Shown here in pieces: positions 8,007 to 23,741 of a stretch of 32,000 nt of DNA. A program made the translations under genes and the position numbers. Source of the stretch: Abditibacterium sp. (GTDB lineage Bacteria; Armatimonadota; Abditibacteriia; Abditibacteriales; Abditibacteriaceae). The notes under the pieces are model-generated. The model ran no database searches. It saw only the letters and a list, made by a program, of their open reading frames with translations, and was not told where the DNA came from. Where the stretch lies: positions 441,212 through 473,211 of the forward strand of contig CBDASK010000003.1 of assembly GCA_965199495.1 (NCBI GenBank), read 5' to 3'. Numbering within the stretch: position 1 is the stretch's first letter; each line of letters opens with the position of its first letter.

Positions 8007-9095
8007 CTATCCTTTAAGATCACGGAGCAGACGCTCAAATTGCTGATCGTAAGTCTTCTTTTTCCGCCATTGGTTAAAATCTGGAATATGCAACGCTCTC
8101 ACATATCTCACCCAGTCTTCGCGCCATTCTCCGCTTTCCAACTTCTGATCTGCCAGTTGAAGTATTTCTTCGCCGAGTATGAAGTCGTCTAAACGCACTG
8201 GAAACAACTTTTGTGAGCCAGTCTCTCGCCCTCGCTCAATCGCGTCGAAGATTTCCGAGACGACGTTTGGCCGAAGCAGAGATTGATTCGAACACACAAG
8301 AATCAGCTTTTTGTGCTTGCTGATTTCCGTGCTGATTTGCGCTCTCCAGGGTTTCCCGCCTTTGAGATCGTGCTTGTAATGCCAGCAGTTGATGTTGTGA
8401 CTCAACAGATCTTCTCGCAGACGGTCAGCAAAGGCTCCATCCTTCTCGGCATGAGACAAAAAACAGGAATTATAAACGGCGGGGCCATGAATCCTACGAA
8501 GCTGGCGGAGTTCATCTTTTGAGTAGCCCATGCCCTCCAAAAACATATCGGGCAAACCATTTATGCTGTTGCGAAACGTAAATTGGTCTATGGAAGATAA
8601 GCCAGGATGAAGCAGCGAATCCAAGCCGTTGGCTTTGTGCAAATCACTACAAAGTTGAAACTGAGTCGCCAGCAGACGCACGCGATCCAAGTTTGCGCCC
8701 GATAGATAAACATTAAGTAGCTTGGCATCCTCCAGGTTGGCTGCGGTTAGATTCGCATCCGTGAAATTAGCGTTATCCAAAACAGTATGCGACAGGTCTG
8801 CGCCACTCCATTGGCTTGCCTGACACTGCGCCCCCGTTAGAACTGCACCTGCGGCGCGCACATTGGTAAAATCCGCCCTCTGTAACTCTGCATTATAGAA
8901 GTCGCATCCTTCTAAATTAGCACCAGCGAAGCTGGCTTCTCGTGCATCTGCCAAGATGAATTGTGCCCGGCGCAAATCCGCGCCTTGGAAATTGGCGAAT
9001 TGAAGATTCCTCCCCTCGAAGTTGGCGCCCTCCAACGAGGGCGCGTCGATTTCCATGAGCGCCTCTCCGGTGCTTCGATGACGAATAGAAATCAT
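8007..9095 (-). CDS. Pentapeptide-repeat / TIR-domain fusion protein
   Basis: Residues about 22-145 are an uninterrupted A(D/N)LxX run (ANFEGRNLQFANFQGADLRRAQF...ANFTDANLTAANLEDAKLLNVYLSGANLDRVRL). Residues about 207-335 are TIR-like (YNSCFLSHAEKDGAFADRLREDLLSHNINCWHY...KLILVCSNQSLLRPNVVSEIFDAIE). A better-supported start is ATG 9056 (MEIDAPS...), preceded by GGAGAGG. Confidence 0.9.
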   Translation of the reverse strand: MISIRHRSTGEALMEIDAPSLEGANFEGRNLQFANFQGADLRRAQFILADAREASFAGANLEGCDFYNAELQRADFTNVRAAGAVLTGAQCQASQWSGADLSHTVLDNANFTDANLTAANLEDAKLLNVYLSGANLDRVRLLATQFQLCSDLHKANGLDSLLHPGLSSIDQFTFRNSINGLPDMFLEGMGYSKDELRQLRRIHGPAVYNSCFLSHAEKDGAFADRLREDLLSHNINCWHYKHDLKGGKPWRAQISTEISKHKKLILVCSNQSLLRPNVVSEIFDAIERGRETGSQKLFPVRLDDFILGEEILQLADQKLESGEWREDWVRYVRALHIPDFNQWRKKKTYDQQFERLLRDLKG

Positions 9096-9178
9096 GAGGA
9101 ATCTGAGTAGCCACTGACTGTTGACACAACTCCTTTTTTTCTGCTACGGTGCGCTTACCTTGAAGGAGGTAACGCAAC

Positions 9179-9499
9179 ATGAAAGAAAGTCTTCCAGAAT
9201 ACAAAGCGAATCTTCAGTCTACAGAACGTTCAGCCCATGAGCAGGAGCGTTTATCAGCCGATTGGAGCGAAAGTCAACGCAAAGCTGTTGTCATTGCGTT
9301 GGCATTACACATGAGAAAAGCCGCTGAGGGTGGCGGCGATCCTTATTACACGCTTTCCGCTTCGTCAGAAGTTATCTTACAGGTTTTGACCGAGGACGCT
9401 GATTTCCTGCAATCGAACCGACAAGTTATTTTACAAGGACTGGACGAGTCCCAAATCCAACGATTCAGGGACGAACTCGAAGCATCGCCATCGGATTGA
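9179..9499 (+). CDS. Hypothetical protein (106 aa)
   Basis: A strong SD (GAAGGAGGT) lies about 8 nt before ATG 9179, and a clean terminator follows. No recognisable domain. Confidence 0.65.
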   Translation: MKESLPEYKANLQSTERSAHEQERLSADWSESQRKAVVIALALHMRKAAEGGGDPYYTLSASSEVILQVLTEDADFLQSNRQVILQGLDESQIQRFRDELEASPSD

Positions 9500-9532
9500 T
9501 TGCTCCGCCAGTAAACGCGATTGTCTGTCCTA

Positions 9533-9560
9533 AAGAGGAGTCTTTCTCCTCTTCTTTTTT
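9533..9560 (+). terminator. Rho-independent terminator
   Basis: aagaggag-tcttt-ctcctctt is a perfect 8-bp stem, followed by cttttttc. Confidence 0.7.
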
Positions 9561-9685
9561 CGTATAAATTTCGATGTTGTCTGCGCGCAACACAACGAGA
9601 TTTGAGCCTACTCATCTGTTACTTTGAGTGAGCAAAGAGAAGCCTGCACCGGCTAAATCACGCTCTTTGACAACAGGAGAAAGGA

Positions 9686-10870
9686 ATGTCTACACGAGCC
9701 GCACTCGCTCGACTCACCTGCGTCTCGCCCGTGAAATGGGCCGGACGCTACCACCATTGGGACGGCTATCCATCTGGATTAGGCGCGACCCTGTGGGAAA
9801 TGTATCACGGCCACTTCAAACACGACCTCGACCCGATGCTTAAGGTATTGCTCGATGATCATCCCGCCGGATGGTCGTCGCTCAATGCCGCCGACTTCGA
9901 TCAAGAACCTGGCTTTGCCGATTCACTGGATTCGAGCAACCAATCCGCCGACCAACCGCAATGTTACTGTCACGGCGACCGCCAAGAAACAGAATGGCTC
10001 GTCACTGATGAGAACGCTTCCGGCTCCGGTTGTGAATGGGCCTATGTCTTCACCTCGGCCAAGGCGAACGATGGCACTCAGCACAACACCATGCTCGTGC
10101 TGTCGTCTTACTCGCCCTATGGCAAGATGATCGGAATGTTTGGCATGGGCGATGACGAAGCTATCTGGCCCGTCGTCGCTGTTGTGAACTTGAAAGGTGA
10201 AGAGCCGAATTGGGAACAGATCGAAACGGCTACACCGCTCGATCCAATGTTCCCGCTCGATGATTACGCTCGCCGAGAATCCTCAAAATCTCTTCATATC
10301 TGTCGAGATTGGGGACGACGTGGCATCTATCAAGTGTGCTTCAAAGGAGAAGTGTTGCACTACGTTCACGTCAGCACAGACGAGGTCGGAAATCGACAAA
10401 TCTTCTGCACCTGTGCGACACCAGAAGACGCGGAGTCGCCCGACTGCGCTCACTCTCAAGCCGTTCTCGCACATTTGGAAACGCAACACGCGAAGGCCAA
10501 GTCGCGCCAAGAGCGCGGATTGGAATATAGCGGTTCGCGTGTCCAGACAGGCGAAGAGCAGACGCAGGTCATGGCCATCGTCTGGGAAGCGGGTCAGCCA
10601 CGGCTACTTGATCCCCGTCCCAGCCAACAACTGCACAACCATTCGCCTTCGGGATTTGAATGGGGTTATGACGGCAGCGGCCCAGCGCAACTCGCGCTGG
10701 CAATGCTGCTCGACTTCTCCGGCGATGAAGAACTCGCTTTGAATAACTATCAAGCGTTTAAATCCCAGTTCATCGCGTCACTCTCGCAAGAAGATACGCA
10801 GTGGACGATCACCGGCAGCGACATCGCTGCTTTTCTGCACCAGCGTTCGATTCGGCATTCGCCCGATTGA
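9686..10870 (+). CDS. SWIM zinc-finger protein of unknown function
   Basis: 394 aa with SD GGAGAAAGG upstream. FCTCATPEDAESPDCAHSQ fits the SWIM CxCxnCxH pattern. The N-terminal domain carries YHHWDGYPSGLG. The C-terminus carries SGFEWGYDGSGPAQLALAMLL, which I associate with a phage/plasmid domain of unknown function (low certainty). Confidence 0.8.
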   Translation: MSTRAALARLTCVSPVKWAGRYHHWDGYPSGLGATLWEMYHGHFKHDLDPMLKVLLDDHPAGWSSLNAADFDQEPGFADSLDSSNQSADQPQCYCHGDRQETEWLVTDENASGSGCEWAYVFTSAKANDGTQHNTMLVLSSYSPYGKMIGMFGMGDDEAIWPVVAVVNLKGEEPNWEQIETATPLDPMFPLDDYARRESSKSLHICRDWGRRGIYQVCFKGEVLHYVHVSTDEVGNRQIFCTCATPEDAESPDCAHSQAVLAHLETQHAKAKSRQERGLEYSGSRVQTGEEQTQVMAIVWEAGQPRLLDPRPSQQLHNHSPSGFEWGYDGSGPAQLALAMLLDFSGDEELALNNYQAFKSQFIASLSQEDTQWTITGSDIAAFLHQRSIRHSPD

Positions 10871-10882
10871 AACGCCTACTAT

Positions 10883-10916
10883 CCAGCCCACTCGTTATGC
10901 GAGTGGGCTGTTTTTT
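10883..10916 (+). terminator. Rho-independent terminator
   Basis: ccagcccactcg-ttatg-cgagtgggctg is followed by tttttt, 13 nt after the stop of the SWIM gene. Confidence 0.8.
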
Positions 10917-11125
10917 GGCAGTCAATTCCACCCCAGCTTCAACTTGTTTACTTCGTGTTTATGTTCCCTTGAAAAGAAACGATTTTTCCTTACTTGGTGG
11001 GCGGATAATTTCCGAGTTACACCTTCCGCAAACGCCGATGCCCCGCCGTTGCAGTGGAGAAAGCTGCAACTACGGGGCACCGTGCGCTAAATATATTCAG
11101 CGTTTTAACGCCAAGTCTTCGGACA

Positions 11126-11800
11126 TTACTTCAGCAACAGTGGCACGTCGAGCAACGACGTGATGCGTTCGATACCGTTTGGCGCGCGCATTATTCCAGT
11201 GCGGTCGAGCCACACGCCGCGCCATCCGACAGAGCGCGCGGCCAAGGCATCGTTTTCGATGTGATCGCCGATGTAAAGGCATTCGACCGCGCTCACGTTC
11301 GCCACCTTTTCGGCGAGGGCAAACGCCTGTGGCGACGGTTTGCGCGGGCCATTGGCGTCCAAACTCATGCGCACGGCAAAATATTCGTTCAGCCCCAAGC
11401 GTTCTAATTTGCGCTGCTGTTGATCGGCATCGCCGTTGGTCAGAACGCCCAGACGCTGACCGTGCAGCAGTTCCAACGCGGGTATAACGTCGGGAAAAAG
11501 TCGCCACTGTGCCTCGTAGAGCGGCAGATATAGCGCGAAGTATTCGTCGGCTTTGGCATCGGAGAGTTCGGGTTGCCCCAGAACTTCGCGGACGCGGCGG
11601 CGACGTTGCTCAGCGAAAGAAATCTCGCCGCGCTCGAACCGCTTCCAATGGCGTAGTGCGGCGGATTGCCAGATGCCAGGAAAATTGCTTTGATTCTGTG
11701 CCAACACGTCAGCGGCCAGAGTCACGCGCCAATCGAGCGCCGCCCGTTGCTGTGCGCCGCTATGATCGAGCAAGGTGTCGTCCAAGTCAAAGAAAATCAT
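11126..11800 (-). CDS. HAD-superfamily hydrolase
   Basis: MIFFDLDDTLLDH (motif I DxDxT), LGVLTNGD (motif II) and YIGDHIENDALAARSVGW (motif IV). The ORF extends to 11839, but MIFFDLDD at 11800 is the typical HAD start. Confidence 0.9.
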   Translation of the reverse strand: MIFFDLDDTLLDHSGAQQRAALDWRVTLAADVLAQNQSNFPGIWQSAALRHWKRFERGEISFAEQRRRRVREVLGQPELSDAKADEYFALYLPLYEAQWRLFPDVIPALELLHGQRLGVLTNGDADQQQRKLERLGLNEYFAVRMSLDANGPRKPSPQAFALAEKVANVSAVECLYIGDHIENDALAARSVGWRGVWLDRTGIMRAPNGIERITSLLDVPLLLK

Positions 11801-11847
11801 GAAAAATAGGCGGCGCCGAAATTGCTTTGGCACCGCCATTGAAGCGA

Positions 11848-12387
11848 TTAACTGAAGGTGCCGCTCGGATACAAACCTTTGATGGTGTCGAGCGTGTCGC
11901 TCAAACCGGCCTGATTATCCTGCGTCGCGCTCAGGTTATTGGAATCGCCCGCTTCGTCCAGCTTGCCCGCGAGTTGCTCGACGTTTTTGACTTGCGTATT
12001 CAGCGTCGCCATTTTGTCAGCGGGCAAACCGCTCGACTCGGCGGGCAAAGTTTTCACGATGTCGCGCACTTTAAAAGCGGCTTCGTGAACGGTTTTCAGG
12101 TTCTTGGAGGCGATGACTTTATCGAGGTCGGCTTTGGCCGCTTCGATTTTCGTCCAGGTCGCTTTGGCCGAGGTGAAATCGGCGTTGCTCGCCATAGCGT
12201 CCGGCGTGGCTGCATTACTCGACATTGCATCAGCGGGAGCCGCGTTAGCCATCGCGGGTGCGGCGGTGTCGGGCGCAGTCGTCGCGTCGGTCGCTTTGTT
12301 GGAGCCGCAGCCGACGAGGGCCACGCTCAGCAGAAAGGCGCTCAGGCCCAGGAGGGCGGCGCGCGGAGTGAAGATGTGGTGAATCAT
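11848..12387 (-). CDS. Lipoprotein, helical, unknown function (downstream partner of the RND pump)
   Basis: A signal peptide with lipobox (LLSVALVGC) is followed by a Met/Ala-rich linker (AMANAAPADAMSSNAATPDAMASNA) and a helical domain. No family recognised. Confidence 0.75.
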   Translation of the reverse strand: MIHHIFTPRAALLGLSAFLLSVALVGCGSNKATDATTAPDTAAPAMANAAPADAMSSNAATPDAMASNADFTSAKATWTKIEAAKADLDKVIASKNLKTVHEAAFKVRDIVKTLPAESSGLPADKMATLNTQVKNVEQLAGKLDEAGDSNNLSATQDNQAGLSDTLDTIKGLYPSGTFS

Positions 12388-12462
12388 GGTGTTAAAAGTG
12401 GGCGTTTCGAGAACGCCAAGTTAAAGGCGCGCGGAGTTTTTGCGCGCCGCGCGCGAGTTCGT

Positions 12463-15400
12463 TCAGTCGGAGTTTGGGGGCACCGTTTTGGTGGTCGGTG
12501 CTTCGGCGTGGCTGTTGATGCCGTCGCCATCGGTCGCCACTTCGTCAAGGGGCACGTGATCTATATCGTCGCTATCGCGCTTTTGCGCTTCGCTCGACTC
12601 GCCGTTTAGCGGCGCGCTGTCCAAATCCACGCCCGAAAGCAAGTCATCAAACAGATGGCGGTCGGGGTCTTCGGCGATTAAACCGCGCTCGACGGCGCGT
12701 TCATGCGCGTTGCGCTCGGCGATAATTTTGTCGCCAATCGGCTTGCCGAATCGCCAGAACAGCGCGGGCGTGACGACTTGATCCAAGAGCGTCGAAGTAA
12801 TCAGGCCGCCCAAAACGACGACGGCCAAGGGCTGCAAAATCTCTTTGCCGGGCGCGCCTTTGGCCAAAGCCAACGGCACCAAAGCCAAACCCGCCGTCAA
12901 TGCCGTCATCAAGACAGGAACCAATCGTTCGAGCGAGCCGCGCACGATCATCTGTTTCGTCCAGCCCTCGCCTTCCTCGCGCATCAGATGTTGGTAGTGC
13001 GAGATCATCATGATGCCGTTGCGACTGGTGATGCCGAACAGCGAAATGAAACCGACCAGCGAGGCGACCGACAAAACGCCGCCGGTGAGGTAAACCGCGA
13101 TGATGCCGCCGATGATGGCCAAGGGAATGTTGACCATCACCTGAAGCGCCGCGCGTGGATGGCCCAGCGCCATTTGCAAGGTCAGGTAAATCGCTACCAA
13201 AGAGAAGAGCGAGAGGAACAGAATCAGACGCGAAGCCGATTGCTGCGCCTCGAATTGGCCGCCGTATTCGACAAAGTAGCCGGGCGGCATTTGGACGCTC
13301 GCGCCGACTTTACTTTCCACGTCCTGCACTACCGAACCCAAATCGCGGCCCGCAACGTTGGCGCTAATCACGATGCGGCGCTGCACGTTCTCGCGCATAA
13401 TCGCGTTGGGGCCGAAACCTTCTTCGATGTCGGCCACGCTCGACAAGGGAATTTTGGCGCCGCCCGGAGTGTCAATAAGAACGCCTCGAATCGCGTCCAA
13501 ATTGCCCCGTGCGGCATCGTTGAAGCGCACCAGAACTTCGTAAGATCGCTGGCCTTCCAAAACGATTCCGGCGTTTTGGCCCAGCATCGCGGTTTCCAAT
13601 GCTTCGCTCACTTCACCACTCTGCAAGCCGTAGCGCGCCAGAGCGTCGCGCTTCATGCGAATCTGAACCTGGGGAATCTCGACTAACTTCTCAACCTTCA
13701 AATCCACGATGCCCGGAACGCCCAACATCGCTTGCCGAATCTCTTCGGCTTTGGCGCGCAGTGTCGGCAAATCCGGCCCGAAGACTTTAACCGCCAACTG
13801 CGAGTTGACGCCCGACAGCAAATGATCCAAACGGTGCGAAATCGGTTGGCCGATGTTGAGCGTCACGCCCGGCAAGGTGCCCAACTTCTGCCGCACATCG
13901 GCCAGAATAATTTCTTTGGGACGACCTGCTTTGAGTTCAACCTCGATCTCGCTGGAATGAACGCCCTCGGCGTGTTCGTCCAGTTCGGCGCGTCCCGTCC
14001 GGCGCCCTGTTTCGGTGACTTCGGGGATTTGCTTCAAGAGCAGTTCGGCGGCGGTGCCCAGACGATTACTCTCTTCCAGACTGGTGCCGGGTTGCGCCAA
14101 CATATTGATGGTCAGCGAACCTTCGTTGAAGCCGGGCAAAAATTCCTTGCCCATGAATGGCGTCGTCGCCATCGCCACAACGAACAGTAGACCGGCGCCA
14201 ATTAGAATCGGCATCGGACGGTTGAGCGTCCAGCCCAGCAAACGCGTGTCCACTTTCTTAAGCCAACGCACCAGGGCGCTGTCTTTTTCAACGTGCGTAA
14301 TCGCCTTAGATTTGGGCAACAGATACGACGCTAAAACCGGCGTCACCGTGAGCGACACAAACAATGAAGCGAGGAGCGAGACGATGTAGGCGATGCCCAA
14401 GGGCGCGAAGAGTTTGCCTTCCATACCCGACAGCGCAAATAACGGGATGAAGACCAGCGCCACGATAATTGTGGCGAACACAATCGAGTTGCGAACTTCG
14501 CGGCTCGCCTCGTAGATCACTTGAAGCGGCGGACGTGGCTGCTGTTCGCGGGCGTTCTCGCGCAGACGCCGAAAGACGTTTTCCACGTCCACAATCGCGT
14601 CGTCCACCAATTCGCCAATCGCGACCGCCAAACCGCCCAGCGTCATGGTGTTGACGCCGACGCCGAACTGCTTGAACACAATCGCCGTGACCAAAAACGA
14701 AAGCGGAATTGCAGTCAGGGTAATCGCCGTCGTGCGGAAGTTGAGCAGAAACAGGAACAAGACGATGGTGACCAGAATCGCCGCGTCGCGCAGAGCTTCC
14801 TCGACGTTGCCGACCGCCGATTCGATGAAGTTGGATTGTCGGAAAATCTGTTTGTTGATCTGCACATCGGCGGGCAAACTCTTTTGGATGTCGTCTAAGG
14901 CCGCGTCTACTTTACCGGTCAGTTCGAGCGTGTTGGCGCCCGGCTGTTTTTCTATGTTGAGAATCACGGCGGGCGCGGCGTTGGCCGAGCCGTCGCCACG
15001 CTTGAGCTGCGCGCCCGCTACAACCTGCGCGACTTGGCCGACCGTAATCGGCACGCCCGCGTTGCTTTCGATGGCGGTATCCGCGATGTCTTGCGGCGTT
15101 TGGACGCGGCCCAAATTGCGAACCAGATACTCTTTGCCGCCCCGATCAATCCAGCCGCCAGTCGTGTTGACGTTGCTCTTTTCGACGGCGGCAGTGACTT
15201 CGTTCAAGGTCACGCCAAACTGCTTGAGCTTGGCCGGATCGATCAGAACTTGAAGCTGCTTGCGCCCGCCACCGATGTTGATGACCTGTGCCACGCCCGG
15301 CACAGAAAGCAATCGCGGACGCACCACCCAATCGGCTAAGGTTCGCAACTGAAGCGGGTCGGTCTTACCGTCTTTGGACGACATCGAGATCAGCATGATG

Positions 15401-15813
15401 CTGCCCATGACCGACGAAATCGGCGCCAGTTGAGGAGCCACGTCGGGCGGCAACTGCTCGCGCGCCTGCGCCAGTTTCTCGTTGACGATCTGGCGGTCGG
15501 TGTAAATATCGGTGCCCCAGGCGAAATCGACGTAAACGATGGACAAACCCGGCGCGCTCGACGAGCGCACGCGTTCGACGCCACTCGCGCCGTTCATCGA
15601 AGTTTCGATGGGCAACGTGACCAGAGTTTCGACTTCTTCGGGCGCCAGACCGTTGGCCTCGGTCATGATGGTGACGACGGGCCGATTGAGATCGGGCAGC
15701 ACGTCAACTGGCAAGTTGGCTGTCACGATGCCGCCGTAGACCAGGATCATGGCGGCGAGCGCCATCACGATGGGCCGGTGCGCCAGCGACCAAGCGATGA
15801 TTTTGTTGAGCAT
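12463..15813 (-). CDS. CusA/CzcA-family heavy-metal efflux RND transporter with an acidic C-terminal extension of about 85 aa
   Basis: 1116 aa. The N-terminus (IIAWSLAHRPIVMALAAMILVYGG...LPVDVLPDLNRPVVTIMTEANGLAPEEVE) and the overall 12-TM, two-large-loop layout are typical of HME-RND pumps. The tail (...EDPDRHLFDDLLSGVDLDSAPLNGESSEAQKRDSDDIDHVPLDEVATDGDG...) extends beyond the usual end. Confidence 0.97.
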   Translation of the reverse strand: MLNKIIAWSLAHRPIVMALAAMILVYGGIVTANLPVDVLPDLNRPVVTIMTEANGLAPEEVETLVTLPIETSMNGASGVERVRSSSAPGLSIVYVDFAWGTDIYTDRQIVNEKLAQAREQLPPDVAPQLAPISSVMGSIMLISMSSKDGKTDPLQLRTLADWVVRPRLLSVPGVAQVINIGGGRKQLQVLIDPAKLKQFGVTLNEVTAAVEKSNVNTTGGWIDRGGKEYLVRNLGRVQTPQDIADTAIESNAGVPITVGQVAQVVAGAQLKRGDGSANAAPAVILNIEKQPGANTLELTGKVDAALDDIQKSLPADVQINKQIFRQSNFIESAVGNVEEALRDAAILVTIVLFLFLLNFRTTAITLTAIPLSFLVTAIVFKQFGVGVNTMTLGGLAVAIGELVDDAIVDVENVFRRLRENAREQQPRPPLQVIYEASREVRNSIVFATIIVALVFIPLFALSGMEGKLFAPLGIAYIVSLLASLFVSLTVTPVLASYLLPKSKAITHVEKDSALVRWLKKVDTRLLGWTLNRPMPILIGAGLLFVVAMATTPFMGKEFLPGFNEGSLTINMLAQPGTSLEESNRLGTAAELLLKQIPEVTETGRRTGRAELDEHAEGVHSSEIEVELKAGRPKEIILADVRQKLGTLPGVTLNIGQPISHRLDHLLSGVNSQLAVKVFGPDLPTLRAKAEEIRQAMLGVPGIVDLKVEKLVEIPQVQIRMKRDALARYGLQSGEVSEALETAMLGQNAGIVLEGQRSYEVLVRFNDAARGNLDAIRGVLIDTPGGAKIPLSSVADIEEGFGPNAIMRENVQRRIVISANVAGRDLGSVVQDVESKVGASVQMPPGYFVEYGGQFEAQQSASRLILFLSLFSLVAIYLTLQMALGHPRAALQVMVNIPLAIIGGIIAVYLTGGVLSVASLVGFISLFGITSRNGIMMISHYQHLMREEGEGWTKQMIVRGSLERLVPVLMTALTAGLALVPLALAKGAPGKEILQPLAVVVLGGLITSTLLDQVVTPALFWRFGKPIGDKIIAERNAHERAVERGLIAEDPDRHLFDDLLSGVDLDSAPLNGESSEAQKRDSDDIDHVPLDEVATDGDGINSHAEAPTTKTVPPNSD

Positions 15814-15993
15814 GAAAATTCTTGGTCACCCGTAATCTTAGTGCTATGGGCAACACTCTAACCGTTAAATCTGGCTGCGCAAAAACAGGCATTCGCCCAC
15901 GAAAAAGCGAATTTCGTAGCGCAGACGCAAGCCACATTCGAGATTGTTAATACCTATCCGGTCGTGAACCAATTCACGCGTTAAATGTGAACG

Positions 15994-16030
15994 CTGAATT
16001 CCGGCTCAAGGAGAGCCGGAATTCAGTTTT
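15994..16030. other. Perfect 14-bp hairpin between the cupredoxin and RND genes (attenuator, terminator or processing site)
   Basis: ctgaattccggctc-aagga-gagccggaattcag is followed by tttt on the plus strand. On the coding (minus) strand it is not followed by a T-tract. Confidence 0.4.
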
Positions 16031-16038
16031 GGGGCCGT

Positions 16039-16416
16039 TTACTTAGCGGTGATGGTGCCCTTGAACATCCTCATTTTACAGGCAAAGCCGATGATCTGGC
16101 CCTTTTTCGGGGTAAAGACGATCTCCTTTTTCTCGCCTTTTTTGAGGCTCACGTCCTGCTTGAGAGCTAGAATAGTGAAGCTATTGGCGCAACCTTCGCC
16201 TTTGGAAACGAAAGTCAAGCGGACTTCCTGTCCGGGCTTAACTTTGATGGCTGCCGGATGAAAGCCTTTGGCGTCAATCGAGACGGTGACTTTCTGGTCT
16301 TTGTGGGTTTTGGTGTGGTCTTCGCCACCGTGAGCCGAGGCGATTTGCGGCGCCATCGAAGCGCCGAGTAATCCGGCGCCCAGCGCCAGTCCCGCGAGAA
16401 TTTGTTTGCTGTTCAT
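16039..16416 (-). CDS. Secreted cupredoxin-fold protein
   Basis: A signal peptide ends ...APQIASA, followed by HGGEDHTKTH. FHPAAIKVKPGQEVRLTFVSKGEGCANSF...FACKMRMFKGTI is typical of small cupredoxin-like domains found beside copper exporters. Confidence 0.85.
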   Translation of the reverse strand: MNSKQILAGLALGAGLLGASMAPQIASAHGGEDHTKTHKDQKVTVSIDAKGFHPAAIKVKPGQEVRLTFVSKGEGCANSFTILALKQDVSLKKGEKKEIVFTPKKGQIIGFACKMRMFKGTITAK

Positions 16417-16488
16417 GTGTGTGTAACTCCTTGTGATTTTGTGTCCCGCGCCGTCGCATCGAAGTGCCTCGGCGCGGGACGGTCGGTG

Positions 16489-16740
16489 TTAGCCCAGAAA
16501 GCTGGTCATCATAGCGCGCAGTTCCACCGGATCAACGGCACAATCTTCCGTTGTCATCTGTTCGCTTATGTGTTCGAAGAGCAGATCAAAGAAAAGCGCG
16601 TTTAATTGCTCACGCAAATCGCACAAAACGGACAAGGCTACGGCGTTTTGCTGCGAATTCAACAGGGGTTGCAACTCGTTCAAGCGTGTTTCCAGTTGCC
16701 TCAATCGCTCTTTGGCCTCACTTCGCGTTAAGTCATTCAT
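16489..16740 (-). CDS. Small helical hypothetical protein (83 aa)
   Basis: The ORF sits in operon context, 20 nt after the upstream stop. It reads as a predicted coiled-coil-like sequence. No motif recognised. Confidence 0.5.
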   Translation of the reverse strand: MNDLTRSEAKERLRQLETRLNELQPLLNSQQNAVALSVLCDLREQLNALFFDLLFEHISEQMTTEDCAVDPVELRAMMTSFLG

Positions 16741-16760
16741 AATGTTCCCTGATTAGAAGC

Positions 16761-17909
16761 TCAGTGCGAGTGCGGCTTGGCCTCGTCCCCACCGTGCGGC
16801 GCCGCTTCGCCCTGCGCGCCCGTGGTCGCAGCCACGTCCACCACAAACGCCGCCGTGATGATGCGATTCTGATGCTGGAACTGGCCCCACACTTTGTAAA
16901 GCCCGGCCTTGGGGAAGTTGGTGTGAAACATCACGTCCGGCCCGCCGCTCATCGGTTTGTCGAGCTTAATCGCGCCAGTTTTGGCATCGGCACTTTTGGG
17001 CGCATCCATCTTCATATCGCCCATTTTGTCGTCGCCCATTTTCATGTCGCCCATCGAATGATCCATGCCCGCCATTTTGCCATCGGCTCCCATCGGGTGC
17101 GAGTGCAGATACAAATTGGTATCGTTGGACAGAATTACGCAATGGCCCATCGCGCCCAAATAGGGCTGCAAATCTTTGACGGGCACGCCTTTATCATTGC
17201 GAATCTGAAAATGTAGCATGGTGTCTTGGCCCGCGACAATCGGCGAGGGCATCGGCATCAGCGCGACTTCGTAAGGCTTGCCACCGGTCTCTTCCGGCTC
17301 GCCTTCGGGATGCGAGTTGAATTTGTTCACCAGCCACATTCCCTGCGGTTTGTCGGGCGTTAAAGTCACGTTGGCCGCTTTGACGGTTTCTCCGGCGGTG
17401 GCGAACTCGAACTGCGGAATTTCCTGTCCGATGCCCTTAACGGTATAATCGGCGTAGAGCTTGTAAGTGCCCGCAGTGGGCAACGCGGTCGTGACGACGA
17501 ATTTGCCGTCGCCTTTAAATTCGGGATGGATGTGGTTGAACCACGACAGATCGTTTTTGACCACGATGAGGTGCATCTTTTTGGTCATCTCGATCTCGAA
17601 ATCGTTGATGTTATCGCCGCTTTTGGCGTCGGTGATTTGCAGCGTCCAAGTCGCCGGTTTGCCGACCGGAATCGCGGCGGGCGCGCTGCTAAAAGCGAGT
17701 TTGGTGGCGTTGGTGGGCGGCTTCATTTCGCCCATCGCATCGTCACGACGCGCGCTGGCTTTAGCGTCGTCCGCAACGGCCACAACGTTCGCATCGCTGG
17801 TGTCAGCAACTTCGGTTGTCGTTGGTGCCGCGTTGTTGCAGCCCGCAATGAAGAGCGCGCCACTGAGAAGAGCAAGGCCCAGAACGGGCAGTTTGAGGTA
17901 AGTTTTCAT
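16761..17909 (-). CDS. Met/His-rich periplasmic lipoprotein, probable Cu(I)/Ag(I)-binding
   Basis: Lipobox LFIAGC. HSHPMGADGKMAGMDHSMGDMKMGDDKMGDMKMD resembles the MDHSxM / MxxM tracts of CopA/PcoA-type copper proteins. The C-terminus is PHGGDEAKPHSH. Confidence 0.85.
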   Translation of the reverse strand: MKTYLKLPVLGLALLSGALFIAGCNNAAPTTTEVADTSDANVVAVADDAKASARRDDAMGEMKPPTNATKLAFSSAPAAIPVGKPATWTLQITDAKSGDNINDFEIEMTKKMHLIVVKNDLSWFNHIHPEFKGDGKFVVTTALPTAGTYKLYADYTVKGIGQEIPQFEFATAGETVKAANVTLTPDKPQGMWLVNKFNSHPEGEPEETGGKPYEVALMPMPSPIVAGQDTMLHFQIRNDKGVPVKDLQPYLGAMGHCVILSNDTNLYLHSHPMGADGKMAGMDHSMGDMKMGDDKMGDMKMDAPKSADAKTGAIKLDKPMSGGPDVMFHTNFPKAGLYKVWGQFQHQNRIITAAFVVDVAATTGAQGEAAPHGGDEAKPHSH

Positions 17910-17949
17910 GTTGGTGTTTGGTTGGTTATTTTGGAGTTATGGAAGTGGT

Positions 17950-20649
17950 TTAGGCACCACGCGCCGCTTGAGCGCGCAACGCCGCCGCGCCCTCGGTCAC
18001 CACGACATCGCTTTGTCCGATGCCGCTTTTGATTTCAGTGCGCCCGGCACTGGTGTTGCCGGTTGTGACTTCGCGGCGCTCGTAACGAGAGCCTTTAACG
18101 ACGAACACGATTTTGGCGGCGCCGTCTTCCAGAACCGCGTCGGCAGGAACGGTCAGCGAGGGGTTGCCCACGCCGGTTTGGATTTGCCCGCGCACAAATA
18201 CGCCGGGGCGCAGAGAGCCGGGGTTATCAATGGTGGCGCGCGCCGTCAAAGCGCGGGTTTGCGGGTCAACCTGCGAACCGATATAAGAGAGACGGCCCTC
18301 GAACCGCTTGCCGGGCGCGGCATCGCTGGTTAAAGTCACACTGTCACCGATATTCACGCGCGCAGCGTCGGCCTCGAACAAAGCCGCTTCGAGCGCGACG
18401 CTATCGAGATTGACGACCGTCATCAAAGGCGCGTCGGCTTGCACCAGTTCGCCCAAAGCCACGTCACGCGATTGCACGATGCCCGCGATAGGCGCGCGAA
18501 CCGGCATGTCCACACTGGAACCGGGCGAACTTTGCAGCAGCTTGAGAGCATTGCGCGCGGCGTCGGCATCGGCCTGGGCGCTCACCAGAGCGGCGCGCGC
18601 GGCCTGAATTTGCGCGGTGTTGTTGAGGCCCGCGTTGTAAACCTTGCGTTCGCGCCCCAGCGTCGAGTTGGCGACCTCGAGAGCGCGTTGCGCTTTATAA
18701 AGTCCAGCCTGGGCGCTCTGCACTCCGGCGCGGGCGTTGCCCAACTGACTACGATTGGCGATGTTCGCGCTAAAAATCTTCGATTCCCGATCCAGTGCCG
18801 CCTTTGCCAAGCGCACGCCCGATTGAGCTTGCGCGACCTGCGCGGTGCGCGTGGCTGCATCGGCGCGCGCGCTCGCGAGGGCGCTTTGCGCCGCCGCGAC
18901 TTCGGCGGTTCCGTTGACGTTGCTGGCCGCGATTTGCTTCTGGCGCGAGAGTTCTTGCTGAGCGGTTTTCTCGTCGGCTTGCGCGGTTTGCAGACGCGCG
19001 GTCGCGGTGTCGAAGGCTTGCTGCGCGGCTTCCAAATCGCGGCCCGAAACCAAACCCTCGCCGATTAAAGATTGAGCGCGCGATAGATTGGCGCGTGTCG
19101 TTGCCACTTCGCTCTGCGCCGCCGCGCGCGCCGATTGCGCCGCAACGAGGGAACGTTGCGCTTCCTGCGCGGGCCGCGAAACGTAAGCGCCCGACTGCGC
19201 GAGTTGCTGGCGCCTTTTCAGTTCGGCTTGTGCGCCTTTCACGCTGGCGTTGGCGTTGTTCAGCGCCGCTTGCGCAGTTTTGAGCGCCTCGGTCGCTTGC
19301 GATGCTTGAGCGCGCGCCGCTTCGAGCGCGGGATTGGCGTAACCTCCGGCACCTGCGGTTCGCGTCGCGGTGTCGAGGGCAACGCGCGCACTTTGCAACG
19401 CGGCCTGTTGCACGCGCACATCTCCGGCGGCTTCGGCTTGCGCGCGCCGCGCGGCTTCCAGAGGAGCGCGCGAAAATACGCCCGCGTTGGCCTGAGCGTT
19501 GATAACTTTCAGATTGGACTGCGCGTTTTGCAAGCGCGCCTGAGCCTGAGTAAACGCCGATTGCGCTTCGCCGATGTCACGGCTTTCGACGACCGCGACG
19601 ACTTGGCCTTGTGTCACTTTGTCGCCCTGCTTCACGTTCAGGCTCGTGACCCGGCCCGGCACGAGCGACGACACGCGCACCGACGCACCTTGATCGGGCG
19701 CAATTTGTCCGTTGAAGGCAATGCCCGTTGCCAACTGTGCGACCTTAACCGGCGCGGTTTTGATGTTCAATAAACGCGCGGTTTCGTCAGGCAACTTGAC
19801 TTCGCCGGGCGCCAGAACATTGGGCGTTGCCGTCGTAGTGCGCGCAATCAAAGTGATGCGCACGTTGCCCGCTTTCTGGGTTGCGCTCGTCTGGCCGAGT
19901 TGAATGTTGGGCGTCGCCGCTACCGCCGAAGCGGCGGGCGCGGGTTTCTCATCGTCTTCGCCGCCGTGCGCCCACACCGCTTGCGCGCCCAGGCCCAACA
20001 GCGCGACGCATAATAAGGCGGCAGTCACGGTTTCGGGCGCGGGTTTTTCGACTTTGGTGAGGCTCACGTCCGCATCTAAATCATGACGAGGACGCGATTT
20101 GCGCCTCTTGATGAGCCACGCGATGACCGCCAACGCCAGAGCGCCCAGAAGCCACGGCAACGCGCGGCGCCACAGAGTCACAGCGACGACGGCTTTGGGC
20201 AAAACAAATGTCACGGTGGTGTCGAACGGCTCGCCGGTTTGAGGAGTAACGTGCAGTTCGAGCAGATAAGTTCCCGGCTCGGAAAACTGATAAACCGGCG
20301 CATCCTCGGCGAAACGGACGATGTAATAACCGGGCGTTTTCTCCGGCTCGGCGGTCACGCGCGAGAGCAAATCGCCGTCGTCGTGCTTCAAAAAGCCGCG
20401 CACTTTGGCGTTCGCCAAAGGCGCTGAAGTGCCCGCCGCGCTTTGATTCAAATCTTCGAGATGAATTTCCAGTTCGGTTTGGGTGGCGCCACTCGGAGCG
20501 GTCGCGGCGGCGGGTTCGGACGCGGCGGCGTGATCTTCGTCGCCGTGCGCGCCCGCGCGAAGCGGCGCAGAAAGTGCCGCGATTACCAAGCACAGCGCCG
20601 TCCATTTTGCGAGAGTTTTTAAATGTTTCATTTCGGTTGGCAAAACCAT
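17950..20649 (-). CDS. Efflux RND periplasmic adaptor (MFP, CusB/CzcB class) with a fused N-terminal module and an oversized helical insertion
   Basis: 899 aa. The lipoyl halves (VSSLVPGRVTSLNVKQGDKVTQGQVVAVVES ... VRAPIAGIVQSRDV), a beta-barrel and a membrane-proximal domain (RLSYIGSQVDPQTRALTARATIDNP...LRPGVFVRGQI) are canonical. Residues 1-226 form an extra module. Residues about 356-715 are Ala/Gln-rich helical repeats. An alternative start is ATG 20631. Confidence 0.9.
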   Translation of the reverse strand: MVLPTEMKHLKTLAKWTALCLVIAALSAPLRAGAHGDEDHAAASEPAAATAPSGATQTELEIHLEDLNQSAAGTSAPLANAKVRGFLKHDDGDLLSRVTAEPEKTPGYYIVRFAEDAPVYQFSEPGTYLLELHVTPQTGEPFDTTVTFVLPKAVVAVTLWRRALPWLLGALALAVIAWLIKRRKSRPRHDLDADVSLTKVEKPAPETVTAALLCVALLGLGAQAVWAHGGEDDEKPAPAASAVAATPNIQLGQTSATQKAGNVRITLIARTTTATPNVLAPGEVKLPDETARLLNIKTAPVKVAQLATGIAFNGQIAPDQGASVRVSSLVPGRVTSLNVKQGDKVTQGQVVAVVESRDIGEAQSAFTQAQARLQNAQSNLKVINAQANAGVFSRAPLEAARRAQAEAAGDVRVQQAALQSARVALDTATRTAGAGGYANPALEAARAQASQATEALKTAQAALNNANASVKGAQAELKRRQQLAQSGAYVSRPAQEAQRSLVAAQSARAAAQSEVATTRANLSRAQSLIGEGLVSGRDLEAAQQAFDTATARLQTAQADEKTAQQELSRQKQIAASNVNGTAEVAAAQSALASARADAATRTAQVAQAQSGVRLAKAALDRESKIFSANIANRSQLGNARAGVQSAQAGLYKAQRALEVANSTLGRERKVYNAGLNNTAQIQAARAALVSAQADADAARNALKLLQSSPGSSVDMPVRAPIAGIVQSRDVALGELVQADAPLMTVVNLDSVALEAALFEADAARVNIGDSVTLTSDAAPGKRFEGRLSYIGSQVDPQTRALTARATIDNPGSLRPGVFVRGQIQTGVGNPSLTVPADAVLEDGAAKIVFVVKGSRYERREVTTGNTSAGRTEIKSGIGQSDVVVTEGAAALRAQAARGA

Positions 20650-22365
20650 TTATGGAGTCGCGGGCAGAGTTCCCGGCCCAATGCCGGTCACGGGCAAATC
20701 GCTCGATGGCGGGTTAATCGGCGGCACGACGTTGGGCGGAATCGTGTCATCGGGAATCGTTCCGGGTGCAGCCACGCCGGGCGGCGCATCAGCGCCCGTT
20801 GGATTTGAAATCGGGCCAAATAACGTGGCGGGAGGCGCGGCACCTAACGCACTTTCGAGCGCCGCTTCGCCCGTGCGCGTGCCGACTAAAGCTTGCAAAT
20901 ACTCGGTTTGGACTTGGCGCAGAGTGCGTTGCGCGTCCAAAACTTCGAGATAAGTCGAGGCGCCCGCCGCATAACCGATTTGAGTTTTGCGCAGCAAATC
21001 GAGCGTTTGCGGCACGATCTCGGTGCGATACCGCTCGACGGTTTGCCGTTGCTGCTGCAAGCGAATCAACGCCTGTTCGACTTGCGTTGTCGCCTGTTGA
21101 CGCAGGGCTTCTAATTGCGCTTGTTGAGCACGCACTTCGGCCTGTGCCGCCTTTTTCTCGCGGCCAATGCTGCCAAAATCGAAAATCGGAAGCGTAACTA
21201 CCGCGCGCAGTGCCGTGCCGCTGGAACCGTCGAAAAAGCTGCCGCGCCGCGCTTGTAATTCGACTTCAGGCAATCGCTGGCGACTGATAGCATTGACCTG
21301 CGCCTGACGCGCTTCCAAAGTCGCCTGTGCGCTCACGATGTCGGGCCGCACCAACGCGCCCGGCAATAAAGCGTCGCGTTGCGCCACTAAATCCGAGCCG
21401 ACCTGCGACGAGGCCGGAAGCGGTGCGCCACCGTTTGTCGTGGCGTTCGCCGCACCAACTGGCGCTGGTGAAACTGACACGTTAGGTAACGCTGTGCGCG
21501 GCACGTTACCTTCGAGCGAGCCGCCCGCCGCAGGAGAATTGGCGTTCGTTGAGCCGCGAACGGTTGCCGTTGAATTTAACGGCAAAGTGGCAACAGGCAC
21601 TTGCAGCACCGACGCGAAATCGGTGGCGAGGGGTAGCGAAACGCGGAGCGGCGTCTGCGGCGCGCGTCCGACGAGTTGATTCAAAGCGGCGCGGCGCGCC
21701 AAACGTTCGGCGCGCGCGGCATCGAGTTCGTCTTCGACGCGCGCGAGTTCGAGAGCGGCGCGTTGCGCTTGAACGGCGGGCACATCGCCAACCGAAGCGC
21801 GGCGCGCGGCGGCCTCACGGAACAATTGCGCGACTTGAACTTGTGTTGCACCCAGATTTTCGGCTTCCTGCGCGGCGAACAAATCGGCGACCGCGTTTTT
21901 GACCTGAACCACCAGACTGCGCTCGGCCAAGGTGTTTTGCGCCTGCGCGCCGCGCACGTTGGCGGCGAAGACTTTAGCACTCGCGCGTCGTCTGCCGAAC
22001 AGATCGAGCGGCTGCGAAATAATGATTTCGGTGTCGGCGGCGCCTCGGTCGCCGATGATGCGCGGCACGGCTTGAATCGTCGGGTTGAGAACCACGCGCG
22101 CACCGGCGGCGCGTTCTTTCGCGGCGGTCAGATTTTCGCGGGCGATGGGCAACTGCGGGTTATTTTGCAGTGCCATCTGAATCAGTTCTTCGACGGAAAT
22201 TTCGGGTTCCGCCGCCAATTCGGGCGCAAATGCGACGACGGGCGGCGTGTTGGGCGCGGGCGGCAACTCAGTTTCTACGGACTGCGCGTGCGCGGCGGAA
22301 ACTAACGCCAGGGGCGCGATGACTAAACAAACTTTGGGGAAAACGGACACAAAAAACCTCCACAT
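20650..22365 (-). CDS. TolC-family outer-membrane efflux protein with a Pro-rich C-terminal extension
   Basis: Signal peptide MWRFFVSVFPKVCLVIAPLALVSAAHA (start 22365, GAGG upstream). The two OEP repeats include LIQMALQNNPQLPIARENLTAAKER, PLDLFGRRRA and TLPIFDFGSIGREKKAAQAEV. The stop TAA directly abuts the adaptor ATG. Confidence 0.9.
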   Translation of the reverse strand: MWRFFVSVFPKVCLVIAPLALVSAAHAQSVETELPPAPNTPPVVAFAPELAAEPEISVEELIQMALQNNPQLPIARENLTAAKERAAGARVVLNPTIQAVPRIIGDRGAADTEIIISQPLDLFGRRRASAKVFAANVRGAQAQNTLAERSLVVQVKNAVADLFAAQEAENLGATQVQVAQLFREAAARRASVGDVPAVQAQRAALELARVEDELDAARAERLARRAALNQLVGRAPQTPLRVSLPLATDFASVLQVPVATLPLNSTATVRGSTNANSPAAGGSLEGNVPRTALPNVSVSPAPVGAANATTNGGAPLPASSQVGSDLVAQRDALLPGALVRPDIVSAQATLEARQAQVNAISRQRLPEVELQARRGSFFDGSSGTALRAVVTLPIFDFGSIGREKKAAQAEVRAQQAQLEALRQQATTQVEQALIRLQQQRQTVERYRTEIVPQTLDLLRKTQIGYAAGASTYLEVLDAQRTLRQVQTEYLQALVGTRTGEAALESALGAAPPATLFGPISNPTGADAPPGVAAPGTIPDDTIPPNVVPPINPPSSDLPVTGIGPGTLPATP

Positions 22366-22441
22366 TTCGCTCTGAAACGGCTTTAGCAACGCGCCACAAG
22401 ACGCGCGAAAAGCGAGGTCAAACTTCGAGAGTCGACCTGAT

Positions 22442-22993
22442 TCAGAGGGAAACGGGAGGGGCACGCCCAATCAAGGACGCGAGCGAAAGCCGTTGAGGTT
22501 TGCCAATTGGTGGCCCGGCGCGCGAGTTCAAACCGCGCAACGCATCGAAGCGGTAAATCGGCAACGCGCTGGCGGCGGCATAAATAACCGCGTGCAAATC
22601 GGCTTTGTGTTGGTGCGGCGAACCGATGGCGACAACAGTCGCGTTGACCGGTTCGCTCGAACAGGAACAGCAGGTCGCCGGAGCCTGTAACGTCGCGGCT
22701 TTAACGGCAACTTGCGCGTGATCGTGATACTCGCTGGCGTCATCGGAGTGATGGGACGCGCCAGAATCTTCATCTGCGTGAGAGTGAGATTCGCTCACTT
22801 CGACGCCGTGCGAATGCCCGCCCGCTTCGAGCGAACAATCCATCGAAGCCGCGAAAGGAGTCGAAACGAAAAGCAAGAGCGCCATCAACAGCGGCCACGC
22901 CGGACGACGCACGCCGATGCGCCACAGAGCGACCAATCCGCCCCATAGCGCGGCGGAGATGTTTCCGCGTGCGTCGTTAGTTGGCTTTCTCAT
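22442..22993 (-). CDS. His-rich, Cys-cluster secreted or membrane protein (putative metal-binding or sensing)
   Basis: The start MRKPTND... is followed by a hydrophobic segment (WPLLMALLLFVSTPFAA), then GGHSHGVEVSESHSHADEDSGASHHSDDASEYHDH, ATCCSCSS and SPHQHKADLH. It is the first gene of the efflux string. No family recognised. Confidence 0.55.
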   Translation of the reverse strand: MRKPTNDARGNISAALWGGLVALWRIGVRRPAWPLLMALLLFVSTPFAASMDCSLEAGGHSHGVEVSESHSHADEDSGASHHSDDASEYHDHAQVAVKAATLQAPATCCSCSSEPVNATVVAIGSPHQHKADLHAVIYAAASALPIYRFDALRGLNSRAGPPIGKPQRLSLASLIGRAPPVSL

Positions 22994-23184
22994 TTCGATT
23001 TTTGCCGTTGCGATTCGACCTGAGCAAAATTTTACGACAGTTGGACGCGTCCTGCAATATACGCCAGATGGGTATAACGCAAACAACAGAACTGGGTTCC
23101 TGTTTAGTGGATTCCGACTCAGCTATGGCGCCCGCGAAATCATAACTTTGAAGACAATTTCAAACGTGCATCAACATCTTTGCA

Positions 23185-23214
23185 TTGACCAAGGCAGCGA
23201 TTTTCATTTATCAT
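23185..23214 (+). promoter_or_regulatory. Sigma70-like promoter for the DUF305 gene
   Basis: TTGACC (23185-23190), an 18-nt spacer, then TATCAT (23209-23214), about 27 nt before ATG 23241. Confidence 0.35.
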
Positions 23215-23240
23215 GGAGAAAATTTATAAGTTCATCTCAC

Positions 23241-23600
23241 ATGAAAAATATCCTGCCTTACACTCTTTCTTTCGCCCTGCTGGGAGCGGCATTGGGCGCC
23301 GGAAGCACTTACGCTTTAATCCGACAAAATGAGAAGCCGCTTTTGACGGTGGATCATAGCTCGATGCAAATGGCCTCTAATTCTATGGCAGACGGATTGA
23401 AAGGCAAAACCGGCGATGAGTTCGATAAAGCGTTTATTTCGCAGATGATCGAACACCACGAAGGCGCCGTCACAATGGCAGTGCAGGCGCACCAAAACGC
23501 GCGTCACGACGAAATCAAAGCGATGGCCGAAGATATTATCAGCGCGCAAACCCGCGAAATCGATCAGATGAGAAATTGGCAGAAGCAGTGGGGTTATTAA
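23241..23600 (+). CDS. DUF305-family protein (copper-island associated)
   Basis: A signal or anchor segment is followed by DEFDKAFISQMIEHHEGAVTMA and HDEIKAMAEDIISAQTREIDQMRNW, the duplicated DUF305 helices. Confidence 0.9.
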   Translation: MKNILPYTLSFALLGAALGAGSTYALIRQNEKPLLTVDHSSMQMASNSMADGLKGKTGDEFDKAFISQMIEHHEGAVTMAVQAHQNARHDEIKAMAEDIISAQTREIDQMRNWQKQWGY

Positions 23601-23690
23601 TCGGCATCTTGCCTTGATAATAGCAGTGAAGATTTGGCCGACGCGCAAATCGCCGGGCCGCGTGGTGATTTACGCGTTGCCGTGAAACCA

Positions 23691-23726
23691 AAAACACCCG
23701 TTCGGCTCTCGCGGAACGGGTGTTTT
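23691..23726. terminator. Bidirectional terminator between convergent DUF305 and multicopper-oxidase genes
   Basis: aaaacacccgttc-ggctctcgcg-gaacgggtgtttt: a 13-bp stem flanked by A and T tracts. Confidence 0.75.
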
Positions 23727-23741
23727 AATTGCGACTTTTCT

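Follow-up and report, generated by a model that had tools for sequence, protein, structure and literature searches.

The gene at positions 8007-9095 (minus strand) of the window, by which we mean the whole stretch of 32,000 nucleotides analysed here (Abditibacterium sp., GenBank assembly GCA_965199495.1, contig CBDASK010000003.1, positions 441,212 to 473,211), joins a pentapeptide-repeat β-helix to a TIR domain in one intact open reading frame (ORF) of 362 amino acids (aa) with an ATG start. This fusion, first noticed in the initial annotation, is correct and far beyond chance, with Pfam, AlphaFold2 and Foldseek in agreement on both parts. The TIR domain retains a nearly invariant Glu at the position where TIR enzymes that consume nicotinamide adenine dinucleotide (NAD+) carry their catalytic residue, the combination recurs in a large family, no partner gene accompanies it from locus to locus, and the repeats diverge faster than the TIR module to which they are attached. 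The pentapeptide-TIR protein is best filed as a sensor-TIR fusion protein of bacterial immunity. We give about an even chance to its being a single-protein abortive-infection system, in which the repeat helix would act as the sensor and the TIR domain as the NAD+-cleaving enzyme (NADase).

All Pfam matches of the pentapeptide-TIR protein exceed the curated cut-offs. Over roughly residues 18-145 these are Pentapeptide (PF00805, 3.8e-26), Pentapeptide_4 (2.3e-13) and Pentapeptide_3 (1.2e-12). Direct reading gives 26 pentapeptides without interruption at residues 20-149, close to the estimate of about 25 repeats at residues 22-145 made at the outset; the centre residue is Leu or Phe in 22 of them, Ala stands two positions earlier in 17, and there are no inserted loops, of the Qnr type or otherwise. 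Compared with the PDB, this N-terminal half finds pentapeptide β-helices, namely synthetic beta1, Np275/276, QnrB1 and MfpA by sequence as well as by Foldseek, and AlbG by Foldseek. The full-length AlphaFold2 model, built with 44 homologues (mean predicted local distance difference test score, pLDDT, 95.3; predicted template modelling score 0.70; pLDDT 97-99 across the repeats), places a hairpin cap before a β-helix that runs to about residue 149, followed by three short helices (residues 171-177, 183-188 and 193-203) and by an alpha/beta domain that extends to the C-terminus. The three helices belong to a linker, residues 150-207, that is covered by no Pfam model and in which H163, S167, F185 and G190 are invariant or nearly so in homologues. 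Cap, repeats, linker and TIR domain account for the full length of the protein, in which no P-loop or STAND nucleoside triphosphatase (NTPase) domain was matched.

The C-terminal domain, initially described as TIR-like, matches TIR_2 over residues 212-304 (1.8e-16) and models as a TIR fold in a separate AlphaFold2 prediction of residues 150-362 (pLDDT 90.8). For this model Foldseek returns a probability of 1.00 for SPARTA, AbTir and SARM1: the SPARTA TIR-APAZ protein matches at 1.9e-5 (8i87_G, root-mean-square deviation 3.4 Å over 156 columns), the AbTir filament (7uxu) has a target-normalised TM score of 0.83, and the TIR domain of SARM1 has a TM score of 0.75. A sequence profile of the TIR module finds AbTir as the best PDB entry (7uwg, 5e-10), followed by a TIR-STING fusion, SPARTA TIR-APAZ and Cat1. 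In the profile alignment E281, which the initial annotation had placed at the catalytic Glu, pairs with the Glu of the AbTir sequence WTNYE, which is residue E208 in the WxxxE motif; AbTir carrying E208A serves as an inactivated control (PMC10641520). Glu occupies this position in 223 of 225 family members, and catalysis is argued for because the residue is so nearly invariant. By its predicted fold and its retained catalytic Glu, the domain is of the NADase type and would be expected to cleave NAD+. The Trp position of WxxxE, which had been passed over before, holds Asn277 in the window protein (NVVSE); the family has Trp there in 173 and Asn in 31 of the 225 members. In AbTir this Trp is tied to the production of cyclic ADP-ribose (cADPR) and to selectivity (PMC10641520), and therefore the subfamily with Asn277 may hydrolyse NAD+ rather than cyclise it.

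In the public database the protein is entered as P0001 with 349 aa, its first residue being Met14 of our 362-aa reading. The true start most likely lies 13 codons upstream, at 9095, and we prefer it because the N-terminal motif is conserved and the hairpin confidently modelled: the first 13 residues (MISIRHRSTGEAL) fit the motif MIxI[KR]H[KR]xTGExL that is kept in homologues of the close subfamily, and residues 1-10 are modelled as part of a β-hairpin with a pLDDT of 97. Met14, as a start that leaves out the segment 9054-9095, was considered and rejected; the Shine-Dalgarno-like GGAGAGG in front of it falls inside the coding sequence of the conserved TGEAL. The gene (guanine-plus-cytosine, GC, content 0.497) is monocistronic, with a convergent downstream neighbour at 7459-7992 and a divergent upstream neighbour at 9179-9499, both on the plus strand. 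No sigma-70-like promoter was found near it, by a scan that is uninformative for a host that is probably not proteobacterial.

The architecture is far from uncommon, a point that the initial annotation did not make. It belongs to a large family whose members are already labelled automatically in databases as TIR or pentapeptide proteins. The full-length search returned 1,249 proteins at E<=1e-5, and the best 120 of these are nearly all 320-470 aa long with Pentapeptide and TIR_2 matches. With the linker and TIR domain as query (residues 152-362), almost exclusively pentapeptide-TIR proteins of 300-450 aa were found, along with a few solo TIRs. An exhaustive phmmer search with residues 150-362 against 1.84 billion representatives at 50% identity gave 2,157 matches at E<=1e-10 and 49 at E<=1e-30. 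Among the 150 best of these matches, 117 align from the first eight residues of the query, where the linker begins, and in most of these the module closes a protein of 300-500 aa at its C-terminus; the remainder comprise TIR modules that stand alone or are truncated, along with a few proteins of different architecture. Because the linker-TIR module is almost always fused to repeats, the two domains act as one unit, and on sequence grounds the module is a TIR subtype, with its own cap, linker and C-terminal extension, dedicated to pentapeptide repeats. A search with a profile of the linker returned only fragments of <=108 aa flanked by Pentapeptide or TIR_2 matches and is uninformative on alternative effectors. 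Named members come from Armatimonadota, from Chthoniobacterales (Verrucomicrobiota), from Anaerolineales (Chloroflexota) and, within Acidobacteriota, from Candidatus Sulfotelmatobacter, Bryobacteraceae and Blastocatellia metagenome bins; one more is carried by an alphaproteobacterial plasmid, of Skermanella. The initial annotation knew of no characterised system with this architecture, and our literature search likewise found no paper describing a pentapeptide-repeat/TIR fusion. The architecture is abundant in databases, and it is distinct by its direct coupling of a β-helix to a TIR domain without an NTPase.

The two parts of the fusion evolve at different rates. In two related loci (L006 and L008 in our numbering) that share the same order of paralogous genes, positional orthologues are 73% identical in the linker-TIR module and 33-40% identical in the repeat domain, the latter being about the floor imposed by the repeat consensus; in one of these pairs the repeat domains measure 116 and 70 aa. 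Such divergence of repeats attached to a constant effector is what one would expect if a recognition module evolves fast. Among 199 members the repeat domain is between 60 and about 400 aa long, and its net charge ranges from -19 to +11 (median -5), with 83% of the domains net negative and 12% net positive. The mean charge per 100 aa is -3.15 in the repeat domain versus -0.61 in the TIR module, and the repeat domain of the window protein has a net charge of -7 over 149 aa. Since charge and length vary this widely, a conserved acidic surface resembling B-form DNA is probably not a family trait, and a variable protein-binding surface fits better than a conserved DNA-mimic surface.

These measurements bear on the idea that the helix is a decoy that resembles B-form DNA, as in MfpA and Qnr, and baits a DNA-binding enzyme of a phage, whose capture triggers the TIR domain. 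The repeats do share the repeat type and the right-handed quadrilateral β-helix of MfpA, QnrB1 and AlbG, and they are mildly acidic on average. However, neither charge nor length is conserved across the family, the loops that Qnr needs are missing from the window protein, and its helix, at about 6.5 coils, falls far below the reported length of the MfpA or Qnr dimer. In addition, MfpA, Qnr and AlbG are stand-alone protectors of topoisomerases, whereas the helix of the window protein forms one chain with an enzyme domain, and to our knowledge most pentapeptide-repeat proteins have no DNA-mimic role. We therefore consider a DNA-mimic decoy unlikely; it is possible for individual members and is not favoured as a general mechanism.

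Under the reading that we prefer, a single-protein abortive-infection system, the TIR domains would be monomeric or kept apart in the resting state, and the β-helix with its conserved cap and linker would be a recognition or assembly module. The helix would bind a multimeric or repetitive ligand derived from the phage, most likely a protein, and this binding would gather the TIR domains so that composite active sites form. The clustered TIR domains would then cleave NAD+ through E281, depleting NAD+ in the infected cell and possibly releasing ADP-ribose or a cADPR isomer, and phage replication would halt. By analogy, the closest working precedent appears to be SpbK of Bacillus subtilis, a single-gene TIR NADase that needs TIR assemblies and is activated by a phage portal protein that clusters its TIR domains (PMC12847820). 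Both proteins unite, in a single chain, an N-terminal part that is not a TIR with a TIR NADase at the C-terminus (a presumed one in our case), both do without a partner gene and are associated with a mobile element, and the proposed logic is shared as well, in that a phage protein would cluster TIR domains and lead to NAD+ cleavage. Unlike SpbK, the window protein has a pentapeptide β-helix with its own conserved linker as its N-terminal part; SpbK is not named among the PDB matches listed and is likened to it by architecture and logic.

A sensor role for such repeats has been proposed elsewhere. For the NACHT proteins of bacteria, pentapeptide repeats were predicted to serve as sensor repeats (10.1101/2022.07.19.500537). 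In the NACHT/STAND and VMAP/TRADD-N systems (Kaur et al. 2020, PMC7159879; Kibby et al. 2022 preprint), a variable pentapeptide superstructure is predicted to sense invaders and TIR is a common effector, as would be the case here. In contrast to these systems, the window protein has no NTPase switch, and its repeats are joined to the TIR domain through a dedicated 58-aa linker. A bolder version of the sensor proposal, which we regard as doubtful, would make the helix a direct, NTPase-independent bait, in its boldest form a nucleic-acid mimic for phage DNA-binding proteins, that signals through the cap and linker; tandem arrays of such genes would in that case supply a germline repertoire of baits.

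Pentapeptide repeats also occur in phages. Stand-alone pentapeptide-repeat proteins in 317 phage records have 35-44% identity to residues 1-150 of the window protein (8646-9095), which is a generic pentapeptide similarity, and the PHROG family phrog_31265 matches residues 2-141, with the N-terminal cap included. A phage pentapeptide protein is reported to counter the Sucellos defence (preprint 10.1101/2024.07.02.601686), and phage proteins of this class could be mimics or antagonists of sensors such as the one proposed here.

The 15 related loci that we retrieved represent 11 independent loci; the locus search seeded with 12 closer sequences gave 5 loci. The pentapeptide-TIR gene is single-copy in 8 of the 11 independent loci, the window counted, which agrees with the single-gene arrangement envisaged in the initial annotation. 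No neighbour gene is conserved across the 11 independent loci, and neither SIR2, SLOG, Macro or SAVED nor any other recurrent partner lies adjacent in the 32-kb window or in 10 related loci. The earlier remark that no ThsA-like gene adjoins the gene in the window was accurate as well, the convergent and divergent flanks being free of SIR2, SLOG and Macro. The other three loci carry tandem arrays of three or four paralogues (Table 1), and each array holds one solo TIR of 159-176 aa, with the catalytic Glu kept, embedded among the paralogues.

These arrays recall the multiple, divergent thsB genes that can occur side by side in Thoeris, and they bring up the possibility that the pentapeptide-TIR protein is a ThsB-type sensor TIR that makes a cADPR-type messenger for an effector encoded elsewhere. 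Many of the more distant family members have precomputed ThsB_TIR (PF08937) matches, and the WxxxE Trp, which is linked to cyclase activity, is kept in most of the family. However, the window protein itself gives no ThsB_TIR match at E<=1 and lacks the motif Trp, and neither ThsA nor any other recurrent effector gene adjoins it within the 32 kb of the host genome covered by the window, or adjoins its relatives in the 10 related loci. A Thoeris-like role thus seems improbable to us.

The neighbourhood survey that had been proposed for this gene places it in accessory, mobile or defence contexts, and not housekeeping ones, in most loci (Table 1). The HD-CE group found upstream in two of them may be a recurrent neighbouring defence cassette. 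On the Skermanella rosea plasmid pSR-5 (NZ_CP086116.1; positions 3853-7609 of the retrieved locus, L016), two IS256 transposase genes stand between a pentapeptide-repeat fragment and a TIR gene, and this copy was apparently a pentapeptide-TIR gene that insertion has inactivated.

Such a disruption is also what would be expected of a costly or toxic cargo gene, and it has to be weighed together with explanations outside immunity, in which the TIR domain would be a non-catalytic scaffold, or else an NAD-metabolising or toxin module serving, for example, mobile-element addiction, with the repeats serving as a rigid spacer or as a rod for dimerisation. The missing WxxxE Trp of the window protein and the housekeeping neighbours of one related locus (L001) are in keeping with this. 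Against it stand the catalytic Glu, whose retention in nearly all members argues for catalysis, the mobile or defence contexts of most loci, and the fact that no antitoxin-like partner recurs. We hold a non-immune role to be quite improbable.

Several observations nevertheless count against a defence function of the pentapeptide-TIR protein. The housekeeping-looking neighbours in L001 are one, and the Asn at the Trp position is another, as activity or product may differ in the window protein and in the 31 relatives that share the residue. PADLOC has no model for the pentapeptide-TIR architecture, and only the TIR portion is matched: best by the prokaryotic Argonaute (pAgo) TIR model Aga_TIR-PNTD1-PNTD2 (3.3e-10), and further by PDC-S66 (1.4e-5) and SAVED_TIR. 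The TIR module was not found in sequenced phages and has a single plasmid match, which is the copy disrupted by insertion sequences. Because it is absent from the phages searched and occurs once in plasmids, mobility of the family is read from the neighbouring genes only. Finally, the low identity of the repeats could in part stem from relaxed constraint on a scaffold.

Two further TIR systems are close to the window protein in their catalytic domain and depart from it elsewhere. The SPARTA TIR-APAZ protein is both the best structural match of the TIR domain and the best PADLOC match, and its own TIR is an NADase that is activated by oligomerisation. In contrast to SPARTA, the window protein has no APAZ region (the PADLOC match is confined to profile positions 5-114 of 430, the TIR part), there is no Argonaute gene nearby, and the sensor here is not nucleic-acid-guided. 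Proteins of the AbTir/TcpB type share the best PDB profile match, the aligned catalytic Glu and the high TM score with the window protein. Unlike it, they have a coiled-coil or no N-terminal domain and were studied in pathogens, and the motif Trp is replaced in the window protein.

TIR-domain NADases are an immune tool common to bacteria, plants and animals. How infection is sensed is an open question for most bacterial TIR proteins, and the family described here couples the TIR domain directly to a rigid, highly variable helix, making the pentapeptide-TIR protein a tractable candidate for how a repeat sensor switches on a TIR domain. Should the protein prove to be defensive, it would serve as a compact model of how a ligand directly activates a TIR domain, and it would provide the first physiological role beyond topoisomerase protection for a branch of the pentapeptide-repeat proteins. 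If the bait proposal held, pentapeptide-repeat proteins, a very large class whose members mostly lack an assigned function, would have a general role as immune receptors. If it is not a defence protein, the gene would still be one that mobile elements of under-studied phyla carry repeatedly as cargo.

The gene is embedded in a stretch of low GC content, 0.507 over positions 1-11000 versus 0.591 over 11001-32000. This stretch is an island of acquired DNA, on which a replication module and several genes of the conflict type are found. Its left boundary lies beyond the window, and neither a tRNA nor an integrase is in view. The replication module, which seems to be that of a mobile element, consists of the genes for a RepO-like initiator and a phage-type DNA-binding protein, and the three genes for the HTH_3, Mrr_cat and YdjM-family proteins are likely a second defence unit on the island. 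Further left, the operon of the E2-E1-JAB fusion and the metallo-beta-lactamase-fold (MBL) gene presumably resembles the conflict operon type of Iyer, Burroughs and Aravind. A functional tie between this operon and the pentapeptide-TIR gene was considered and rejected, as the two are 5.5 kb apart with opposite-strand genes between them and no such genes are found in the related loci.

Table 1. Positions of the pentapeptide-TIR gene and its parts, of other genes on the low-GC island of the window, and of features in the related loci (L numbers; positions are those of the respective sequence)
Sequence	Feature	Position	Strand	Basis
Window	Complete pentapeptide-TIR gene, 362 aa, with stop codon at 8007-8009	8007-9095	-	ORF list, Pfam, AlphaFold2
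Window	N-terminal cap, aa 1-19, predicted β-hairpin with strands at aa 2-6 and 12-16	9039-9095	-	Model secondary structure, pLDDT 97, conserved motif
Window	26 pentapeptide repeats, aa 20-149, predicted right-handed quadrilateral β-helix of about 6.5 coils; proposed sensor/assembly domain	8649-9038	-	Register, Pfam, PDB matches, Foldseek
Window	C-cap and three-helix linker, aa 150-207, motifs H163-x-G-[PL]-S167 and F185-L-x-G-x-G190	8475-8648	-	Conservation, model
Window	TIR domain with family-specific C-terminal extension, aa 208-362; motifs LFP 297-299, IPDF 337-340, W343, LLRDLK	8010-8474	-	TIR_2, profile vs PDB, Foldseek
Window	Codon GAA of E281, predicted catalytic Glu; motif N277-V-V-S-E281 replaces WxxxE	8253-8255	-	AbTir alignment, conservation
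Window	Low-GC accessory island carrying the pentapeptide-TIR gene	1-11000		GC, Pfam, PADLOC, PHROGs
Window	Prok-E2_A/ThiF (E1)/JAB triple fusion, 758 aa	242-2518	-	Pfam, PADLOC
Window	MBL gene, 4-nt overlap with start of the E2-ThiF-JAB fusion	2515-3639	-	Pfam
Window	HTH_3 protein	4768-5247	+	Pfam
Window	Mrr_cat nuclease	5118-5921	+	Pfam; PADLOC PDC-S02 (3.8e-26) and type IV methyl-directed restriction endonuclease models
Window	YdjM-family membrane hydrolase, stop/start overlap with the Mrr_cat gene	5918-6445	+	Pfam
Window	Phage-type DNA-binding protein and RepO-like winged-helix initiator, 20-nt overlap	6591-7992	+	Pfam, PHROGs
Window	394-aa protein, C-terminal DUF6166 (1.8e-27), Cys/His-rich middle; divergent from the pentapeptide-TIR gene	9686-10870	+	Pfam
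L001	Housekeeping-looking neighbours
L003	HNH nuclease
L005	Insertion sequence elements
L006	Tandem array	8990-12544
L006, L013	DUF4145
L006, L009, L014	Small HTH_17/AlpA-type genes
L008	Tandem array	1914-5522
L008	HEC-01 (AAA_15 and DUF4276) immediately past the array
L009	Tandem array	8001-12701
L011	HD-CE, then a 551-aa protein without family match, <=3.5 kb upstream of the pentapeptide-TIR gene	2953-5519
L011	Integrases, patatin
L014	HD-CE, then ORC/CDC6-like, then CARF-like gene, 5-9 kb upstream of the pentapeptide-TIR gene	1236-5157		PADLOC CARF6 8.3e-76 (CARF-like gene)
L014	Dcm and Vsr
L015	HicAB

The genes of the E2-E1-JAB fusion match the PADLOC E1-E2 and JAB models of the type found in cyclic-oligonucleotide-based anti-phage signalling systems (CBASS), and no cGAS/DncV-like nucleotidyltransferase (CD-NTase) is visible in the window. 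Upstream of the fusion and MBL genes, a 238-aa predicted four-transmembrane protein without a family match is encoded at 3816-4532 on the minus strand. Past 11 kb lie a haloacid dehalogenase-type (HAD) hydrolase gene and a copper-resistance cluster, the latter at 12463-24797 on the minus strand, with genes for a resistance-nodulation-division (RND) pump (ACR_tran, 1.3e-273), a cupredoxin, a YtkA-like protein, an HlyD/CusB-type protein, an outer-membrane factor and a multicopper oxidase. At 899 aa the HlyD/CusB-type protein is longer than usual; it carries an extension at its N-terminus and a long coiled coil rich in Ala and Gln, and its region has the highest GC content of the window, 0.66.

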